Source: an uncultured Acidobacteriota bacterium (lineage in GTDB: Bacteria > Acidobacteriota > Blastocatellia > Pyrinomonadales > Pyrinomonadaceae). Taken from it: a stretch of DNA of 64,000 nucleotides. Where the stretch lies: the NCBI GenBank assembly GCA_963770215.1, contig CAVYOP010000014.1, forward strand, positions 396,940-460,939, given 5' to 3'. Below the pieces are notes generated by a model that did not search any database, was not told where the DNA came from, and was given only the letters and a program-made list of their open reading frames with translations. A program made the position numbers and the translations under genes. Shown here in pieces: positions 1 through 44,775 of the stretch; positions within the stretch are counted from its first letter, which is position 1, and every line of letters begins with the position of its first letter.

Positions 1-3000
1 ATGTTGGAAGATCTGACTTGGCGACACTCTCAGTCCGGCGAGACGAGCGCGCGCTGACACCTGAATGCTGAGAATCGAATCGCCACCGAGTTCAAAGAAG
101 TTATCGTGAATGCCAACGCGATCCACCTTGAGAACTTCAGCCCAAAGATCGCACAGCACACATTCGACGGAGGTGCGTGGCGCAACGTAGCCGTCTTCAT
201 CAGGGAGATCGGGCTTCGGCAGGGCGCGGCGATCGAGCTTGCCACTCGGCAAACGCGGCAACGCGGCGACTACCGTGAAGCTCGACGGGATCATGTGTTT
301 CGGCACACAACCTGCCAAAAAGTTTCGCAACTCAGTTGAAGTCGTTTTTAGCCGCGGATGCAGGCTGATGTAAGCAGCGAGATGCCGGACGCCTTCGGTG
401 AGATCGTTGGGTATGACAGCCGCCTCACGCACCGCTTCGTGGCGTAGCAATGCCGCCTCGATCTCGGCTGGCTCGATGCGATAGCCGCGAATTTTCACCT
501 GTTGATCGACGCGTCCGAGAAACTCGATCTGTCCATCGGTGCCGGTACCGCGCTAAATCACCCGTGCGATAAAGCCGCGCGCCTGGTAAAAGGCTAAACG
601 GATCGGGAATGAACTTCTGCGCGGTCAATGCCGGATCGCCAAGATAGCCGCGACTAACGCCGGCTCCGCCTATGTACAACTCACCGCGCGCGCCGATAAC
701 TGCGGGCTCGAGTTGCCGGCCTAAAATGTAGTGCCTGAGTGTTAGCGACCGGCCAGCCGATGGATACACCCGTCGTCACGTTACTTCGAGATCGCACATC
801 GTGGCGACGATCGCTGCTTCCGTTGGTCCATAAGTGTTTACCAGCCGGATTCGTCGCCCAACATTTCTGTGCCATCGCTCGACTCTTTCAGCCAGCGCCT
901 GGTCGCCGCCAATGATCACAAGTCGCAAGCTCGCCGGCCACAGCCCAATCAATGGAGATCAGCTCGTGCCAGTAAGTGGTAGGAAGATCCAGCACTGTTA
1001 ACTTCTTTTCGCCGGCACTCTTGCAGAAACTCCGCCGGAGCTTTTGGCACTTCACCGTCACGCAGCACGAGAGTCGCGCCGCTTGTCAGGCTCGTGAAGA
1101 TCTCTTCCACACTGGTGTCGAAGTTGAACGACGAGAATTGAAGGATGCGATCCTGCGGCGCGATCTCGAATGCGAAATTCGCCGCCCGGATATAGTTCGC
1201 CAGCGAACCGTGTTGGACCATCACGCCTTTCGGCGTTCCGGTCGAGCCCGAGGTGTAAATCACATAGGCGAGATTGTCGGCGGTTGCGGCAGACGCGGGA
1301 TCGGCATCACTCTCAGCGTCAATCGCCACGGCCTCAGTCTCCAAAAACTGTTCGGTGAGCAGCAGCGCAGCGCCACTATCTTCGAGCATGAACGCCAGAC
1401 GTTCTTTCGGATACGCAGGATCGAGCGGCACGTAAGCGCCACCGGCCTTAAGCACCGCAAGCACGCACGTCAGCATTGCCGCCGAACGCGGAACGCAGAT
1501 GCCGACACGGATCTCTGGTCCAACGCCGCGCTCGCGCAGGTAGTGCGCCAACTGATTGGCGCGTTTGTTCAATTCGCGATAGCTCAGCGTTTCCTGGCCT
1601 GCCACAATCGCGATCTGATCGGGTGCGCCGGCCGACTTGCTGCGCGAACGATTCATGCACGCAAATGAGCGGTGCAAAGTTCGCGCGCGTGTCGTTCCAG
1701 TCGTATAAGATTTTTGGCGTATGGCCGTTAAAAGTAATGGCAATGCTGCCAGGCTGACTGACGGATCGGCCACGATACTCTCGAGCAGGACGTGAAAATG
1801 TTCGCCCAGACGTTCGATGGTCGATGCGTCAAACAGATCGGTGTTGTACTCGAACGACGCGTCGAGTCCGGAGTCAACTTCAGTCGCTGTTAGCGACAGA
1901 TCAAACTGCGCGGCACGTTGGTCTAACGCCAATGATTCCACTGCGAGATCGCCGAGTTTCAATGCAATGTCGCCTTTCTGAAAGGCAAACATCGCCTGAA
2001 ACAAAGGAGAGCGCGCCGGATCGCGTTCCGGTTGTAGCTCCTTGACGAGCAGATCGAACGGATAATCCTGATGCTCGAAAGCCGCGAGAGTACAGTCTCG
2101 CGCGTGCCAGCGAGAAACTCCGAGAACGATCGCTCGCCTGAAAGCTTCGCTCGCAGCACTAACGGATTGACGAAATAGCCGATTGTTCCGGCAAACTCCG
2201 CTGAGCCACGACCCGACGACGGCGAACCGACCAGGATCTCGTCCTGGCCTGCATACCGATGCAGCAGCACCTGAAACGCAGCGAGCAGAGTCATAAATAA
2301 AGTGGCTTCATGGCTGAACGCGAGTCTCTTCAATCGCTGCGTTAATTGCAGGTCCAACCTTGCTGACACTGTCGCGCCGCGATAACTCGGAACTACGGGA
2401 CGTGCGCGATCCGCAGGCAAATCGAGCACCGGTAACTCGCCCGCTAGCTGTTGCAACCAGTAATTTCGTAAACGCACGCCAGCGGGACCGGCGAGCATTT
2501 CAGCCTCGCTGCGAACGTAGTCTGAATAGGATCGGATTAGAGGCAAAGCGGCCGGACGGCCACCGACTTCCGCTTCGTACAACGAGGCCAGTTCGCGTTG
2601 CAGAACTGCCAGCGACCAGTAGTCGACGATAATGTGATGCGCGCTGAGCAGCAGCACGTACTCACGCTGAGATCTCTCTAATAGCAAAGCGCGCAGCAAC
2701 GGCCCGTGCTCGAGATCGAAAGTGGTCCAGGCTTCGTCCTGCAGACGATTGCGCTAATTCCTCTTCGGACCAACGCACCGCATCCTCGATGACAAGACGG
2801 ACCTCGGAATTTTCCTGAATGACGCACAGCGGCGCGCCTTCGCGGGTTGGAAAGCGTGCGCGCAACATCGAATGCCGCTGAATCAAGATGCTGAACGCGC
2901 GTTGCAGCGCTCGCGTATCAATCTCACCACGGAGACGCGCGGCAACCGAGACGTTATAAGCCGTGCTTTCCGGCGAGACGTGTTGAATGGCCCAAAGCGC

Positions 3001-3111
3001 CTGTTGTCCATGCGACAAATGATGCTCACCATGCTGGTCCGTCGTGACCGCCGGTGTTGCCGCAAACGATCGTTCCGCGCAGGCGAGTATTTCAGCTGGT
3101 GAGATCCGCAA
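1..3111 (-). pseudogene. Non-ribosomal peptide synthetase module (condensation-adenylation-thiolation). The 3' end runs off the window start. The frame is broken at least five times (true pseudogene or indel errors).
   Basis: C domain is in ORFs 2662..3111 and 1959..2699 (HHIIVDYWS = HHxxxD motif). A domain is in ORF 949..2004 (LAYVIYTSGSTGTPKGV) plus fragments 681..875 and 425..769 ([24 protein letters not shown]). My minus-strand translation of 1..545 continues [20 protein letters not shown] ... [13 protein letters not shown] (PCP core). The pieces lie in different frames. Confidence 0.85.
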
Positions 3112-5173
3112 TAGTTGGGTTTCGCAGAAAGTTCGTCGACGACAGTCTTACGCCGAGACTGGTTTCGACTGTATGCGTCAATTCGACGGCCAGCAAAGAG
3201 TCGACGCCGTAGCGCGCGATCGGTTGGCGAGCTTCGATCAGCGGACCATCAACATTCAGTCGCGCACTCAACAACACTCGCAGCCATCGCTCAACAGTCT
3301 CCGGATTCAACTCGTCCGGCGCGACAGGCGTGAAACTGTTTCGCTCGTCAGTCGCGCGCCATTCGGCGATCACACTCAAGCTGTTCTTAAGAAATCCATC
3401 TCGACAAGCGCCACGTCTAATTTTCCCGCTGGACGTTTTCGGAATTGTGCCGGACCTGATCAGCACTACCGCCGCAGGCTGTATTTCAAACTCCTCCGCG
3501 ATTACCGCGCGGATCGTTTGTATGATCGCCTGCCCATAGCTTTGCACAAAAAGTGCGTTATTACGTGAAGCTGTCTCCCGCAAAGGCGCAAAGACGCAAA
3601 GCGCTGCCGCGTTTCGCTGGACTTTCTTTGCGCCTTTGCGCCTTTGCGGGAGAATATCCTTCGCAGCGGACGTTTTTGTGCAAAGCCCCTGCCCATCGTT
3701 CTTACGACTCGTCTCGATCTCCTGGACCACCACCAAACGCTCTTCACTCTGAACCTCAATCGAAAACGCCGCACCCGCATCAGGCTTGAGTGCCGCGTGA
3801 CAACTCTGCACAGCACGCTCGATGTCCTGTGGATAATGGTTGCGGCCACGGATGATGATCAGATCTTTCAGACGTCCCGTGACGAACAGCTCGCCATCGC
3901 GAACGAACCCGAGATCGCCAGTGCGCAGAAATCTCCCACCAGATGAGAGTCGCGCATTAAAAGTATTTTCAGTCTCTTCCGGACGATTCCAATAACCGGC
4001 CGCCACGCCGAGTCCGGAAACCCAAACCTCGCCTACCTCGCTACGCTCGCACTCGCGCAACGACTCCGGATTGACGATCACGATCTCGGTACCCAGTGTG
4101 GCCCGACCGCAACCCACCAAGGTTCGCGAATCGACAGTGCCATAAACTGGTCCAACACCTCTTCGTCCGCCGGTGACTTTCAGCGTCGCTTCGGCCAATC
4201 CGTACGCCGGATAGAACGCCTGCCGCCGAAAACCGCACGGCGCAAACGCGGCAATAAATCTTTCCAATGTCTGATAAGACACGGGTTCCGCGCCGTTGTA
4301 AGCGACACTCCAGGAGCTAAGATCGAGCGACGCGCGTTGTGCTTCGTCGACCCGGCGCACGCACAAGTCATAAGCGAAGTTTGGACCACCACTGTGCGTC
4401 ACGCGGTAGCGCGTGATCGCCTGTAGCCAGCGGGCCGGATTTTGTAACAGCGCGGCGGGCGACATAAGCAGCCCCGTAAAACCGCTGTAAAGTGGTTGAA
4501 TGATTCCATCAACCAACCCCATATCGTGAAAATGCGGCAGCCACGACAGCGACACGCTTTGTGGACCATGCTCGAACCCGTGTTGAATGTAGGCAGAGTT
4601 TTCCAGAACATTGGCATGCGTCACCATCACGCCTTTAGGCGTAGACGTCGAGCCCGACGTGTACTGGAGATAGGCCAGCGCATCGCCGTTGGTCGTTGGC
4701 GGCAGCCATTGCGCAGCTTCGTCGTTCGAAAGATCGTCGGACGTCAACCATTCGAACTGTAGCCGTTCGACTCTTGATAAAACCTGTCGCGTGGTTAACG
4801 CGGCGGCTGCCTGCGCGTCACTCGCGATAGCTTGAAAACGGCCGAACCCGCGCTTCGTTTGCGGCAAGCTGACGGGAACCGCAACAGCGCCGGCGTACAG
4901 ACATCCGAAGAAAGCCGCGATGAAGTCAAGACCCGGAGGGTAGGCCAACAGCACGCGCTCGCGTTGCAAACCTCTGTTCTGTAACAAAGCTGCAACAGCA
5001 CGCGCGCGCAAATCGAGTGCGCCGTAGGTGATGGATGACGTCTCGCTTTCTTCGTCCGCGAGAAAACGATAAGCCGCGAGCGTTGGCTCGTTGAGGCTTC
5101 TAAAGCGTAGGAGATCGATCAGGGTAGATAGTTTGGTCTCAGTTTCAACCGGACAAAGAGAGGGATAATGCAT
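3092..5173 (-). CDS. Fatty acyl-AMP ligase fused to an acyl carrier domain (lipoinitiation module). It carries a 53-codon in-frame insertion.
   Basis: 693-aa ORF with YLQYTSGSTSTPKGVMVTHANVL, RTGDLGF and PKTSSGKIRR (adenylate-forming cores). C-terminal ARYGVDSLLAVEL is a phosphopantetheine attachment motif. ATG at 5173. It overlaps the start of the NRPS C domain by 20 nt. Confidence 0.85.
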   Translation of the reverse strand: MHYPSLCPVETETKLSTLIDLLRFRSLNEPTLAAYRFLADEESETSSITYGALDLRARAVAALLQNRGLQRERVLLAYPPGLDFIAAFFGCLYAGAVAVPVSLPQTKRGFGRFQAIASDAQAAAALTTRQVLSRVERLQFEWLTSDDLSNDEAAQWLPPTTNGDALAYLQYTSGSTSTPKGVMVTHANVLENSAYIQHGFEHGPQSVSLSWLPHFHDMGLVDGIIQPLYSGFTGLLMSPAALLQNPARWLQAITRYRVTHSGGPNFAYDLCVRRVDEAQRASLDLSSWSVAYNGAEPVSYQTLERFIAAFAPCGFRRQAFYPAYGLAEATLKVTGGRRGVGPVYGTVDSRTLVGCGRATLGTEIVIVNPESLRECERSEVGEVWVSGLGVAAGYWNRPEETENTFNARLSSGGRFLRTGDLGFVRDGELFVTGRLKDLIIIRGRNHYPQDIERAVQSCHAALKPDAGAAFSIEVQSEERLVVVQEIETSRKNDGQGLCTKTSAAKDILPQRRKGAKKVQRNAAALCVFAPLRETASRNNALFVQSYGQAIIQTIRAVIAEEFEIQPAAVVLIRSGTIPKTSSGKIRRGACRDGFLKNSLSVIAEWRATDERNSFTPVAPDELNPETVERWLRVLLSARLNVDGPLIEARQPIARYGVDSLLAVELTHTVETSLGVRLSSTNFLRNPTIADLTS
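3529..3696. mobile_element. MITE-like 150-bp palindromic element (3538..3687) flanked by a 9-bp direct repeat CCTGCCCAT (3529..3537 and 3688..3696), inserted inside the FAAL coding sequence.
   Basis: Terminal inverted repeat (A/G)GCTTTGCACAAAAA at 3538..3552 versus 3673..3687. Inner 28-bp inverted repeat at 3574..3601 and 3626..3653 with one mismatch (three tandem CGCAAAG-type octamers). The identical 9-mer on both flanks looks like a target-site duplication. Confidence 0.75.
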
Positions 5174-8255: not shown

Positions 8256-8715
8256 GTAGTGGTACAGTTTGACTATGTGCTAGTACGCCGAAGGCGTTCA
8301 CTAATTCCAGCCCAGGGTTGCTTCAACCCTGGGTTGAGTCCTGGATTAACCGTAAAACTCTGAAAGAGTTTCAATTTTGCAACCGAACACTTTCAGTGTT
8401 TTCTAATTCTCTTCTGCTGTACCCAGGGTTGCTTCAACCCTGGGTTGAGTCCTGGATTAACCGTAAAACTCTGAAAGAGTTTCAATTTTGCAACCGAACA
8501 CTTTCAGTGTTTTCTAATTCTCTTCTGCTGTACCCAGGGTTGCTTCAACCCTGGGTTGAGTCCTGGATTAACCGTAAAACTCTGAAAGAGTTTCAATTTT
8601 GCAACCGAACACTTTCAGTGTTTTCTAATTCTCTTCTGCTGTACCCAGGGTTGAAGCAACCCTGGGCTGGAATTAGTGAACGCCTTCGGCGTACTAGTTA
8701 AAACTGTACTACTAC
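8256..8715. mobile_element. MITE-like element, family 1, with long terminal inverted repeats and an internally triplicated 111-bp core.
   Basis: The left end (GTAGTGGTACAGTTT ... TAGTACGCCGAAGGCGTTCACTAATTCCAGCCCAGGGTTGCTTCAACCCTGGG) is the reverse complement of the right end (8644..8715). A diverged single-core copy lies at 38984..39227. Confidence 0.8.
8311..8643. repeat. Three head-to-tail, apparently identical 111-bp tandem units inside the family-1 element.
   Basis: Unit starts are at 8311, 8422 and 8533. Each unit holds three small hairpins: CCCAGGGTTG-CTT-CAACCCTGGG, AAACTC-TGAAA-GAGTTT and ACACT-TTC-AGTGT. This creates the perfect 37-aa repeat in track ORF 8318..8701. Confidence 0.9.
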
Positions 8716-8792
8716 GCGAAGATCGCTGGAGTTTGCACCCGCGACGTGGTCTTGTGGGCCCGGCCAACAAATTAAAGCTGGCAAACTAAAAG

Positions 8793-10409: not shown

Positions 10410-10710
10410 TTATCCTCTTTCCATCAAACGTTTCCGAATCCATAGAGGATCGCGCCTCAGATCCAGAATGGCATAAACGTAGACTACGTCGTCTTCCACT
10501 TCATAATAGATGCCGAATGGAAATCGCTTTGACAGCATTTCGATTGAATCCAAAGTAGATTGGATGAACACCGGCAAAGAGAACAAGAGAGTCTAAATCG
10601 GAAAGGATTGAATCGAGGAAGTAGTCGCCAACTCCGGTTGCGCACGATTCATAGAATTGTGCGCCCGACTCGAGGTCTTCGGTCGCGTCCTCGAGTATTA
10701 CAACGTTCAT
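10410..10710 (-). pseudogene. RelE/ParE-family type II toxin, with one frameshift.
   Basis: ORF 10501..10710 (MNVVILEDATEDLESGAQFYE...GVHPIYFGFNR) continues in the -1 frame as MLSKRFPFGIYYEVEDDVVYVYAILDLRRDPLWIRKRLMERG*. The junction is at a T3 run near 10538..10540. Confidence 0.7.
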
Positions 10711-12866: not shown

Positions 12867-15800
12867 TCAGAACTGAAGTTTGAGCGCAAACTGGATCGAG
12901 CGCGGCCCGCCAATCTGATAAAGAGGATTGAATCCGCCGTTCGCGCCACCCGCACCAAGACTGTTCGCCAATGTCTGGGTCGAGAGACCAAACAGCGGGC
13001 TGGTCAAAAGATTTGTGGGACTGCCGAAGTTCGGATGATTGAAGATGTTGAAAAACTCAGCCCGGAAGCGAAGCCCGACCCGTTCCGTGATAGGAAACTT
13101 ACGCTGAAGACCGACATCAGCCTGCCACGCCCCAAATCCTCGCAGCACATTGCGCCCGAAATTTCCCTGCGTTCCGGCCGGCGCCGCGGCAAAAGCCGCG
13201 CGATTGAAAATCTTGCCGCCGGGAAACTGCGAGCCAAACAGCTCTAGCGGCACGCCGGGATTCACGTTCGGACGCGGAGCGAGCAAGGTCCCGGCAGCGA
13301 TGAAAGTCGCGCCGGCGATGTTCACCGGCGGCGCCGATCTCGCCAGAATGAAACTGTCCAACGACCAGCCACCGAAAACATGACGAACCGCCTTGTGCTG
13401 CGCCGGAGACGGCAGAACGTAAGTGACGCCGGCAGTGAATGAATGGCGAATATCGAAATCGGAGTTTCCGCGGTCCACGTTCGGAGCAGCTATCGCCGCC
13501 ACCGTGTTGAAGTTGTTGGTGGAGTCGGTCGAAGCAATATCGATCGAGTGAGACCAGGTGTACGAAGTAACGATCTGCAATCCGCGCGACAACCGCCGCT
13601 GAAACTTGATCTGTAACGCGTGGTAATCGGAAGTTGCAGAGTTGTCGGTGATCACGACCGATTGAAAATTCGGGTTCGGATTAAATAGCTGCGTTGTGCG
13701 AAGCAAGTCACGTCCGATTGCCGCGACATAAGTCGACGACAAACTCTGATTGTTACCGATGGACTGCTCCAGCGCGACGTTCCATTGATAAGTCCGCGGA
13801 AGTTTCAAATGCGGGTCCGCGACAAGGATGGTGCTCACCGGCGGATTGAGCGTGGGGACTGGAGGCGCAGCATTCTGAGGACTCAGAGGAAACGGCGCCA
13901 AAGCGAGTGTTTTGGAAACAAGATAAGGAAAGAAACTGGCGACTCCGCCAAGCGATCCCTGGCCGAGATCGTAAAACATCCCGAAGCCTGAGCGTAGCAC
14001 TGCATCCCAATCGCGTATCCCACGGAATTGATAGGCCAGCCCGACCCTGGGAGCGAAGTTGCCATAAGTTGTTTCATAGAGCGGCGTCCCGCGGGGCGCC
14101 AAAGTCATCGTGGCCGGATTGTCGAGACCGGCGATAGTGAAGGGATCGTCCGCGGCATGCTTGCCCTTGAGGGGTGGATTAACTTCCCACCGCACGCCGT
14201 AAGTCAACGTCAATCGCGGCGTTACCTTCCACGTGTCCTGTCCGTAAAGCGAAAGGTTTTGCGACAGCAGGGCGCTGCCCTGAAATACAGTGGGCTGCGC
14301 AAACGAAACGGTTCCCGAGAGCGCTCCTCCGGGATTCGCATTTACTCCAGAGAAGAAGAAAAAGTGACGGTAGGCAAACGGGCTGGTGAACGGTGCGAGC
14401 CAGCGATAGTCAACGCCAAACTTCATCTGATGCGAACCCTTGCTCACGGATAGATTGTCAAGCAAGTTCACCTGGCGCTGTTCGTTCACGCCTTGCTTTC
14501 CCTGAGCGTATTGTCCAGCGCCGCCGACTACAAACAGGAAAAGGCTATCCGCCGACGTGAACTGCGTGGGAAACAACAGCGAATCCGAAAGCGGAACAGC
14601 GCCGCCGAAATCGTCCATCACATAGTCGATCGTGACGCGGTCGTTGCTGTAGTTTGCGCGCACCTCGTTGCTGATTTCAGGAGTTATCAATTGGCTCGTG
14701 CCTAAGGTGAAGGTGTGTATCGAGGCCGCCATCGCATTCGTAGTGCTGAGGACCCTGCCGGATGCGAAGAACGGACCGCGTTGTTCGAGACTCGAAGGCG
14801 AGTAGTTGTATCTGGCAAACACGTTTACTTTCGAGCTCACCACATGGTCCATTCGAATGCCGTAGGCGTTCAACGTGGATGGATTCGAGAAGGAAGCGTT
14901 GAATTGCGCGAGCCCGCCGCCAAGCGCCGGTCCGTTGGCAATCGGAAACGCATTCAGGTACGGCCGCGACGCGGCTGGAGCAGCTTGTCGCGACGCGTTA
15001 TCCGGCACGACAGTTTGCAAACTCGACGGCTGGCGCAATCGCAATCCCTCGTACGAAAAGAAGAAGAACGTTCTGTCTTTGCGAACCGGCCCGCCGATGA
15101 CGCCGCCAAAGTCATTCTGCCGCGTCTCAGGTTTTGGCAAGCCGCTGGCGTTTACAAACCAGTCGCTAGCGTCAAGCACGCTATTCCTGAAATACTCGAA
15201 CAACGTGCCGTGAAAGGCATTACTGCCGGAGCGGGTCGCGATCGAAATCTGGCCGCCGGGAGTGCGTCCAAACTCCGGCGCAAACGAAGACGTTTGCACG
15301 CGAAACTCCTGCGTTGCATCCACGGAGACTAAGCTGTTCGTTCCACCCGAAGCACTGAAGGCGGGTAACGCGCCGCCCGCAGTCTGTACGAGCGTTGCCG
15401 CGCCGGTGATGCCAAAGTTGGCGCTCACTCCATCCACCGAGAAATAATTTGCATCCGCTCGTTGACCGTTGACGCTGAATTGTCCCTGATCGTTTTGCGA
15501 CGTCGCGGTATGGACCACTCCCGGCGCAAGCGCTATCAACGTCTGAAAGCTGCGGCCGTTGAGCGAAAAATTCTCGACGAACGTTCGGTCCACAACGGTG
15601 CTGACACTTGCCGACTCGGTGTTCAGCAGAGGGGCGCCAGCCTTCCACCGTGATGACTTCGGAAAGGTCTCCGATCGTCAGTTCGAGATCGATTCTGAGC
15701 GTATCCTGAACGTGAAGGATCACATTCGGCTTGAGCAGCTTCTTGAAGCCTGACTTTTCGATCTCGAGACGATAGCTGCCGGGTGGAAGATTTGCGAGAT

Positions 15801-31872: not shown

Positions 31873-32112
31873 AGCTTGCCTCAAAAGTTTTGTTCCCAGC
31901 GGCTCTGCCGCCGGATGTGAGGCGAGGCTCCGCCTCGCCGTTCGCTGAAGACAAGACGTGGGCTGTGCCCGCGGTTATGGCCTATGGCCCATAAACATTG
32001 GGCCGAGCCCGAACCAGGGGCGAAGCCCGGGGGCCATTCAGCCGGACCGGCGAGGCCGAGCCTCGCCTCACATCCGACGGCAAAGCCGCGGCGTGAGACT
32101 TTGGGGTAAGCT
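31873..32112. mobile_element. MITE-like palindromic element, family 2, copy A.
   Basis: About 70-bp terminal inverted repeats (AGCTTGCCTCAAAAG...GCCGCCGGATGTGAGGCGAGGCTCCGCCTCGCCG versus CGGCGAGGCCGAGCCTCGCCTCACATCCGACGGC...CTTTGGGGTAAGCT). A related copy lies at 44541..44775. Confidence 0.75.
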
Positions 32113-38983: not shown

Positions 38984-39227
38984 GTAGTTGTACAGTTTGC
39001 CTGTCTGTTAGTACGCCGAAGGCGTTCTCTAGTTCCAGCCCAGGGTTGCCTCAACCCTGGGTTGAGTTATGTATTGATCCCTTGAACTCTGAAAGAGTTT
39101 CAATTGCAAACCGAACACTTTCAGTGTTTTCTAATGCTCTTCTCCTGTCCCCCAGGGTTGAAGCAACCCTGGGCTGGAATTAGAGAACGCCTTTGGCGTA
39201 CTAACACATAGTCGAACTGTACTTCTG
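38984..39227. mobile_element. MITE-like element, family 1, single-core copy.
   Basis: Same architecture as 8256..8715: GTAGTTGTACAGTTT...TAGTACGCCGAAGGCGTTCTCTAGTTCCAGCCCAGGGTTGCCTCAACCCTGGG ... CCCAGGGTTGAAGCAACCCTGGGCTGGAATTAGAGAACGCCTTTGGCGTACTA. One diverged core unit. Confidence 0.8.
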
Positions 39228-39255
39228 CCCATCACTCTTGTTATCGCGACTCTTG

Positions 39256-44540: not shown

Positions 44541-44775
44541 TGCTTTGCCTGAATCTCACACCACGGCTTTGCCGCCCGATGTGAGGCGAGGCTTGCCTCG
44601 CCGTTCGCAGAACAGAAGAACTCATGGGCTTCAGCCCTTGGTTCGGCCTTGGCCCACAAGCAAGGGCCAAAGCCCGAACCAGGGCGAAGCCCAGAGTTTT
44701 AGGCCGTCTGCGGCGAGGCCAAGCCTCGCCGCACATCGGGCGGCAAGCCGCGGCGCGAAACTCTTGAGGCAAAGC
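44541..44775. mobile_element. MITE-like palindromic element, family 2, copy B.
   Basis: GCTTTGCCTGAATCTCACACCACGGCTTTGCCGCCCGATGTGAGGCGAGGCTTGCCTCGCCG versus its imperfect reverse complement at the right end. It starts 14 nt after the stop of the 1288-aa gene. Confidence 0.75.

Follow-up and report, generated by a model that had tools for sequence, protein, structure and literature searches.

A miniature inverted-repeat transposable element in frame within a fatty acyl-AMP ligase gene of an uncultured Acidobacteriota bacterium

The question raised by this locus is how a palindromic segment of 150 bp came to lie within a protein-coding gene that it does not break, and whether the open frame has any meaning for the enzyme. 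The locus belongs to a 64,000-nucleotide stretch of an uncultured Acidobacteriota bacterium of the Pyrinomonadaceae (assembly GCA_963770215.1, contig CAVYOP010000014.1, positions 396,940 to 460,939), hereafter the window. Here an open reading frame (ORF) on the minus strand (3092..5173) encodes an AMP-binding fatty acyl-AMP ligase (FAAL) joined to an acyl carrier protein (ACP), as follows from Pfam matches, homologues and solved structures (PDB 7r7e/f/g); 53 of its 693 residues are inserted. The best explanation, which we consider highly probable, is that a genuine MITE (miniature inverted-repeat transposable element) was inserted in the FAAL gene by a transposase of the SWIM-DDE type, the frame being kept mostly by arithmetic.

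The element (3538..3687) is a non-coding palindrome composed almost entirely of nested hairpins; no strand is assigned to it, to its inner module or to the duplication at its borders. Its 15-bp ends, RGCTTTGCACAAAAA, are a left terminal inverted repeat on the plus strand (AGCTTTGCACAAAAA, 3538..3552) and a right one on the minus strand (GGCTTTGCACAAAAA, 3673..3687). They contain a perfect 14-nt inverted repeat, GCTTTGCACAAAAA (3539-3552 and 3673-3686), or 15 nt if the outer R/Y (A/G) pair is counted. The inner hairpin module (3574..3653) has stems built of (GCGCAAAG)n units (3574-3601 and 3626-3653), which form a 28-nt inverted repeat with 96% complementarity, and a loop at 3602-3625 starting with CGCTGCCGCGTTTC. 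Both the terminal repeats and the near-perfect inner repeat had been noticed in a first-pass annotation made from the sequence alone. The same annotation correctly placed a 9-bp target-site duplication, CCTGCCCAT (ATGGGCAGG on the coding strand), at 3529..3537 and 3688..3696: the two copies are identical at all nine positions and lie 159 bp apart, start to start. The chance of such a repeat abutting both ends of the element is about 4e-6 per placement. The boundaries were fixed in three independent ways, namely by the duplication, by the points at which contigs of a soil metagenome (X1) diverge, and by the offset common to 43 related elements. Prokaryotic MITEs range from about 50 to 800 bp (PMC11602168), and the window element is one of them, being small, non-coding and multi-copy, with terminal repeats, a duplication of fixed length and an empty site in relatives.

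The empty site is seen in both protein and DNA. The closest homologues of the FAAL ORF are proteins of metagenome-assembled genomes (MAGs) of Pyrinomonadaceae (Acidobacteriota). When 15 homologues were aligned with the window protein, all 15 had a gap of exactly 53 columns, filled by the window alone, and in the alignment with all 120 matches the insert was present in none of the 117 homologues covering the site, which rules out a native loop insertion. Two orthologous and syntenic Pyrinomonadaceae loci (L100 and L101), with the gene order ABC transporter, sulfotransferase/SCP2, FAAL-ACP-C (C, condensation domain), have at this site a single 9-mer homologous to CCTGCCCAT and no element. Without the 159 nt the window reads ...SRKNDGQAIIQTIR... 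and aligns without gaps to ...RKHEAPAIIETTR...; removal thus restores the orthologue length, as had been anticipated, and the inserted peptide with its neighbours ...EIETSRKNDGQG and AIIQTIRAVIAEEF had been read exactly as the translation gives it. The insertion looks very recent and lineage-specific, because the ends and the duplication are perfect and the orthologues retain the empty site.

The window carries many small insertion-type errors (see below), and a repeat wrongly placed into the contig during assembly had to be considered as the source of the segment. However, an independent short-read X1 contig (3675-3840) crosses the right junction, including the right copy of the duplication, with 0 mismatches. 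Moreover, the 9-mer that stands in perfect duplicate at the element's borders occurs only once in the orthologues, and a misassembly would not create such a duplication. We regard an artefact of this kind as extremely improbable.

The element is also repeated, as would be expected of a MITE. Contigs of X1 match the FAAL region at 99-100% identity, with a depth of about 3x in the flanks, 18-33x at the MITE ends (a 6-10 fold pile-up) and 70-425x in the inner stem; the points at which they part into several different flanks are exactly 3536-3539 and 3687-3690. When one genome per species was scanned with the pattern TTTGCACAAAAA-N(100-130)-TTTTTGTGCAAA, at least 96 loci with the same ends were obtained, mostly from Pyrinomonadaceae and other Acidobacteriota, but also from Dehalococcoidia, Planctomycetota, Gemmatimonadales, Pseudomonadota and Entotheonellaceae. 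Among the matches listed, the flanking 9-mers agree at 8 or 9 positions in 45 of 95 elements; in 43 of these 45 the offset is that of the window and the element ends are RGC...GCY, while a shifted control gave 0/95. The first-pass annotation had allowed for a coincidental 9-mer, and a duplication recurring at the same offset in 43 of 95 elements speaks against it. Six elements in four other acidobacterial MAGs share the ends, the inner stem and the loop (CGCTRYCGCGTTTC) with the window MITE, and each of these close relatives is flanked by its own, different 9-bp duplication. The copies that this annotation had expected are therefore present both in the depth and divergent flanks of X1 and as related elements in other genomes.

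Some members of the same-end set deserve separate mention. One Dehalococcoidia MAG (OZ250168 / CBDEGW01) holds 16 of the at least 96 loci (L001, L004, L013-L017, L030, L031, L036, L049, L062, L073, L076, L078 and L083); these are copies of a 128-152-bp MITE with the same ends and a core of its own, a burst in a different phylum. The named transposase homologues come from Dehalococcoidia and Chloroflexota, in keeping with this burst. A further same-end element, with a duplication agreeing at 8 of 9 positions, was found on a contig assigned to a Candidatus Aenigmatarchaeota MAG (L006:3269-3423), and reflects either a true cross-domain transfer or a binning error.

The partner transposase was approached through longer elements with the same ends. 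First, a scan of viral contigs for GGCTTTGCACAAAAAGT revealed a 3890-bp element (L105, IMGVR_UViG_3300045930_000344, 740-4629) with the ends GGCTTTGCACCAAAAGTCC and GGCTTTGCACAAAAAGTCC, i.e. GGCTTTGCAC(C/A)AAAAGTCC, flanked by a 9-bp duplication without mismatch, AGCCTATGC. A 409-aa protein that it encodes combines a SWIM zinc finger with a DDE_Tnp_1 domain, and the right end of the element is identical to the right terminal repeat of the window MITE at 15/15 bases. Second, tblastn located a transposase 41% identical to this protein in a Pyrinomonadaceae MAG (L042 5751-6968, JBARIW010000109.1), within a full-length element of about 1.4 kb (5689 to ~7083) that has the left end GGCTTTGCACCAAAAGCCCG and adjoins three same-end MITEs. 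The SWIM-DDE protein family is large, with 7956 matches at E <= 1e-10. For both transposases the best match is the NCBIfam model NF033579, covered almost end to end with 121 and 107 bits; over 194 aa, their identity to the IS903 transposase is only about 28%. The inverted repeat of IS903, GGCTTTGTTGAATAAATC (read from plasmid NZ_CP031809), has its outer 7 bases in common with the MITE ends. IS903 makes 9-bp target duplications, and the IS903 group of the IS5 family in the ISfinder classification is characterized by a 9-bp duplication and GGC ends; the window MITE group has both. Judged by their sequences, the two transposases are distant, SWIM-extended relatives of the IS903 type (IS5 family), although, being below the cut-off of NF033579, they are not members of the IS5 model by the curated threshold.

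On this reading, the window element is a non-autonomous DNA transposon of a widespread group, whose 15-bp ends are recognised by a SWIM + DDE transposase. Presumably a full-length element at another place in the genome provided this transposase in trans. Within the FAAL coding sequence the enzyme would have made a cut staggered by 9 bp and inserted the element there, and the subsequent repair would have yielded the CCTGCCCAT duplication.

Several observations weigh against this assignment. The 121 and 107 bits of the two transposases lie below the NF033579 cut-off of 140, while IS903 scores 353 bits; the L042 element has a degenerate right end; and no full-length element is present within the 64-kb window. 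Exact copies of the 150-bp subfamily were seen only as short metagenome contigs, and a scan of JGI metagenomes with an IUPAC pattern for both subterminal ends of this subfamily returned no real element (its sole matches, L097 and L098, are chance matches, neither being an element).

Other searches for a partner gave less. Pairing of ends 700-2500 bp apart in the first 96 loci produced false pairs only, and tblastn with the IS903 transposase found no IS903-like gene in these loci. Four Dehalococcoidia transposase loci (L107-L110) were also inspected: in L108-L110 the right end ...GTGCAARGCC stands just after the stop codon, in L107 it is absent, and no left end was found within 350 bp upstream in any of the four; they are probably longer, cargo-carrying elements. 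The literature searched contained no paper with the MITE end sequence and none combining SWIM, IS5 and insertion sequence. As for cargo, the L105 element carries an N6/N4 DNA methylase fused to a Mrr-like nuclease domain; the same methylase adjoins the same end in L106, and in L107 a methylase follows the transposase. In the Pyrinomonadaceae MAG mentioned above, three MITEs (189, 158 and 107 bp) and the full-length element, all with GGCTTTGCAC ends, lie side by side (L042:3960-7083) in a nest that ends beside a tRNA-like sequence, suggesting either a clustering of insertions or elements that target each other's flanks.

Given a MITE in the gene, does the open frame point to selection? The first-pass annotation stressed that the element sits in the gene without breaking the ORF. 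The frame is indeed open: the element plus duplication amounts, as it stated, to 159 bp, equal to 53 codons, and the gene's frame passes through without a stop. This, however, is largely a property of the element and not evidence of selection. The sum of 150 and 9 nt is a multiple of three and four of the six frames of the element are stop-free; therefore an intact frame needs no selection, and this element, if inserted at random into a gene, would leave the ORF open in about two of three cases. For a random 53-codon stretch of the same composition the probability of staying open is 0.125. Related copies are 131-139 bp long and, with the duplication, not a multiple of three. Of the 43 copies with a good duplication only two lie inside plausible genes, in the window and in L066, and the L066 copy breaks its ORF; keeping the frame is not a habit of this MITE group. 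In a published census, about 90% of bacterial MITEs were in intergenic DNA (PMC11602168).

The protein would gain some 53 basic residues, predicted to be disordered, in the loop that joins the beta-hairpin to the last helix of the C-terminal subdomain, ahead of the catalytic lysine of the PKTSSGK motif. An AlphaFold2 model built on a 16-sequence alignment (mean pLDDT 72) gives residues 490-538 a pLDDT of about 30 and no secondary structure. On one side of the insert the model has a strand of a beta-hairpin (477-486), on the other a helix that starts at 531 and continues as the native AIIQTIRAV helix. The position before the PKTSSGK motif, proposed from the sequence alone, is thus reproduced in the model. 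Basic residues (K or R) number 10 in the insert and acidic ones (D or E) 2, for a net charge of about +8.

These features allow for a tolerated addition to a surface loop, with the enzyme still working, in the manner of the Rickettsia palindromic elements (RPEs) found in functional genes. The site is a loop between secondary-structure elements, and in the closest solved FAAL (7r7e/f/g) a linker of 9 residues stands where the window carries the insert. The modelled disorder outside the fold is compatible with a surface loop without being proof of one; the frame is intact and relaxed selection is not detectable; and in-frame MITE fusions are recurrent in other bacteria, according to a review (PMC10969869). 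On the other hand, the insertion looks very recent and there has therefore been little time for selection, an open frame is expected by chance in about two thirds of insertions, and the only other group copy in a plausible gene is ORF-breaking. Furthermore, the C-terminal subdomain must rotate in catalysis, and a basic loop of 53 residues nearby may interfere with it. Tolerance by a working enzyme is possible, at somewhat less than even chances in our estimate.

The main effect could instead be on the RNA. The transcript would contain a very stable hairpin: the coding-strand RNA is predicted to fold with -88.6 kcal/mol (z = -8.0 against shuffles), which agrees with the strong hairpin suggested in the first-pass annotation. 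Such a structure could lower translation or trigger cleavage, with a polar or attenuating outcome. However, no terminator-like U-tract follows either stem, and Rfam gave nothing above threshold, the sub-threshold matches being miRNA-like hairpins only, by which a known RNA family is ruled out. No intrinsic terminator or promoter was found inside the element. A predominantly RNA-level effect seems to us improbable.

The condition of the host gene bears on a further possibility, namely that the insertion, together with a deletion of 18 residues, inactivated the enzyme, and that the gene of this FAAL and the nonribosomal peptide synthetase (NRPS) part that follows is a young pseudogene with an accidentally open frame. 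The host ORF matches PF00501, PF23024 and PF00550 (AMP-binding, FAAL-type C-terminal and carrier domains), its best solved relatives are FAALs (7r7e, 3kxw and FadD32), and all invariant catalytic motifs are kept. The name FAAL gene, used in the first-pass annotation, is correct for these domains but too narrow for the gene, as the orthologues continue as FAAL-ACP-C-A-T. By tblastn and translations, the corresponding condensation, adenylation and carrier domains (C, A and T) are found in the window at 1..3096 on the minus strand, split by at least 9 frameshifts, every one an insertion of 1-2 nt.

The 54-nt (18-aa) deletion is in frame, with its junction at 4132..4133 (minus strand) in the FAAL N-terminal domain, and an X1 contig (4006-4206) spans it with 100% identity and 0 mismatches; the MITE and the deletion are both real in reads. 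The missing residues are NAPALEQHRILSAEIGAS in orthologue P0001, where they follow the YGLAE motif; about 110 of 119 homologues carry 15-24 residues at this site and the window none. Judging from the position, the lost residues are probably most of the FAAL-specific insertion. This insertion lies in the FAALs' N-terminal domain, and its deletion from other members led to weak acyl-CoA formation (PMC8460268).

At first sight the gene resembles a pseudogene. This reading is favored by two in-frame lesions unique to the window allele, by the Pfam match to the FAAL C-terminal domain, which ends at residue 489, at the insertion, and by the downstream frameshifts, since relatives in the same and other soils lack the extra bases. 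Reads or contigs of relatives that are about 96-98% identical are without the extra bases at 538, 731, 781-782, 929, 1632 and 2753, and an intact adenylation domain was obtained by translating one of these contigs; the extra bases at 2092-2093 and 3095 were deduced from orthologues only. The frameshifts, however, look like assembly errors, as insertions of the same 1-2-nt type occur across the window: X1 contigs lack single bases at 10538, 15643, 17892 and 21564, those at 15643 and 21564 being otherwise identical (0-1 mismatch), and at each of the four positions an ORF becomes longer once the extra base is deleted (in one case 582 codons instead of 452). All extra bases in the window are insertions, few lie in long homopolymers, and every one of them disrupts or shortens an ORF. 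Assembly errors are the probable cause, and any pseudogene in this window therefore needs checking against reads. Furthermore, the ratio of nonsynonymous to synonymous substitution rates (dN/dS) is 0.17-0.18 between the window and the orthologues, which equals the level for the pair of intact orthologues (0.19); the window branch has no excess of dN, and the invariant catalytic motifs are retained. With the same discrepancies found window-wide and no rise in dN/dS, the pseudogene reading appears doubtful.

In-frame MITE insertions have been documented for the RPEs, the QMITEs of Coxiella, the enterobacterial repetitive intergenic consensus (ERIC) and elements of Anabaena (PMC10969869, PMC5896051). 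Like the window MITE, RPEs are palindromes of about 150 bp that lie in frame in protein-coding genes (Ogata et al., 2000, 2002, via PMC10969869), and the peptide they add is stop-free, often at surface positions of the protein. Unlike the window group, with 2/43 copies in plausible genes, RPEs are recurrent (dozens of genes) and encode a conserved peptide; recurrent in-frame insertion with a conserved peptide is not a feature of the window group. To our knowledge, RPEs have no clear terminal repeats or target duplications and no known transposase. The window MITE, in contrast, has terminal repeats, a duplication and a cognate transposase family.

IS903 and IS5-derived MITEs resemble the window group in ends starting with GGCTTTG and in transposases for which NF033579 is the best match. 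The IS903 transposase has 307-322 aa, whereas the cognates of the window group have about 410 aa with an additional N-terminal SWIM zinc finger, and, unlike IS903, some full-length elements of the group carry cargo (the DNA methylase of L105). In natural-product synthetases a parallel exists as well: going by the title of an article of Fewer and colleagues from 2011, cited in PMC10969869, MITEs reportedly have a part in inactivating the microcystin gene clusters of Anabaena. Those MITEs, like the one described here, are non-autonomous elements in a synthetase gene of the NRPS/polyketide synthase (PKS) kind; in the window, the frame is preserved. Like the window element, QMITE1 and QMITE2 of Coxiella burnetii (PMC5896051) and the intragenic ERIC and Anabaena MITEs (PMC10969869) have terminal repeats, duplications of 7-9 bp and RNA hairpins that are predicted to be very stable, and they are occasionally fused in frame to host ORFs. 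They differ in belonging to other sequence families and other hosts and in having no link to SWIM-DDE transposases.

The locus is a clean in-frame MITE case in Acidobacteria with an identified transposase family, an event of a type already known from other bacteria, and the accepted view of how MITEs work is unchanged by it. Two outcomes would go further: that the MITE-encoded loop of 53 residues is expressed and tolerated in a working FAAL-NRPS, or that the elements form an undescribed cross-phylum SWIM-DDE transposon/MITE group. That one or the other is the case we put forward tentatively, as rather unlikely. In the first, the element would be an RPE-like protein-coding palindrome outside obligate intracellular bacteria. 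In the second, the group would extend over Acidobacteriota, Dehalococcoidia, Planctomycetota, Gemmatimonadota, Pseudomonadota and Entotheonellaceae, with nearly invariant GGCTTTGCACAAAAA ends and with DNA methylase cargo in some members. For annotation, the long open FAAL ORF holds 159 nt of transposon-derived DNA, and software for gene calling and domain prediction will show the C-terminal domain here as odd and split. For natural-product mining in Pyrinomonadaceae, a group with many NRPS and PKS clusters, MITEs offer a cheap way to spot biosynthetic genes that were altered recently and are possibly silenced. For the biology of mobile elements, a MITE end sequence of many soil phyla is tied to an IS903-related SWIM-DDE transposase family, and one hairpin core, (GCGCAAAG)n, occurs inside MITEs with different ends; the SWIM-DDE group and this shared core came as less expected side results.

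The core is far commoner than the MITE itself: in soil metagenomes the (GCGCAAAG)n stem alone reaches 25-140 times the flank abundance. MITEs whose ends are quite unlike those of the window element (GTGGGTCAGTTT... and GCGGACAAACGCGGATTTCGCGGAT...) also contain the hairpin, which occurs in variants, either alone or with the loop at either end of the stem; besides the window (3574-3653), it is present in L064:2455-2585, L063:6760-6895, L035:7040-7110 and L047:3045-3095. It looks like a shared hairpin module. A CRISPR-like repeat was considered for the abundant 30-nt inner arm and ruled out, as the arms are always inverted pairs around a conserved loop; the terminal repeats of the arm-bearing elements are a further point against it. 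Repetitive extragenic palindromes (REPs) and bacterial interspersed mosaic elements (BIMEs) are extragenic palindromes of 20-40 bp, linked to RAYT transposases and without terminal repeats or a duplication, while the window element as a whole has both; on its own, the inner hairpin is REP-like in abundance.

Other palindromic elements were found in the window. A second MITE-like family (8257-8716 and 38988-39232) has the ends GTAGTxGTACAGTTTG and an inner CCCAGGGTTGCTTCAACCCTGGG hairpin; the copy at 8257-8716 holds a 111-bp unit three times, and the family is multi-copy, with X1 contigs of several flanks breaking off at ~8255 and 8692-8715. A third palindromic element of about 180-190 bp is present at 31899-32089 and 44569-44746, its arms containing GATGTGAGGCGAGGC...GCCTCGCC. 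In total, the 64-kb window contains at least 5 MITE-like elements of three families.

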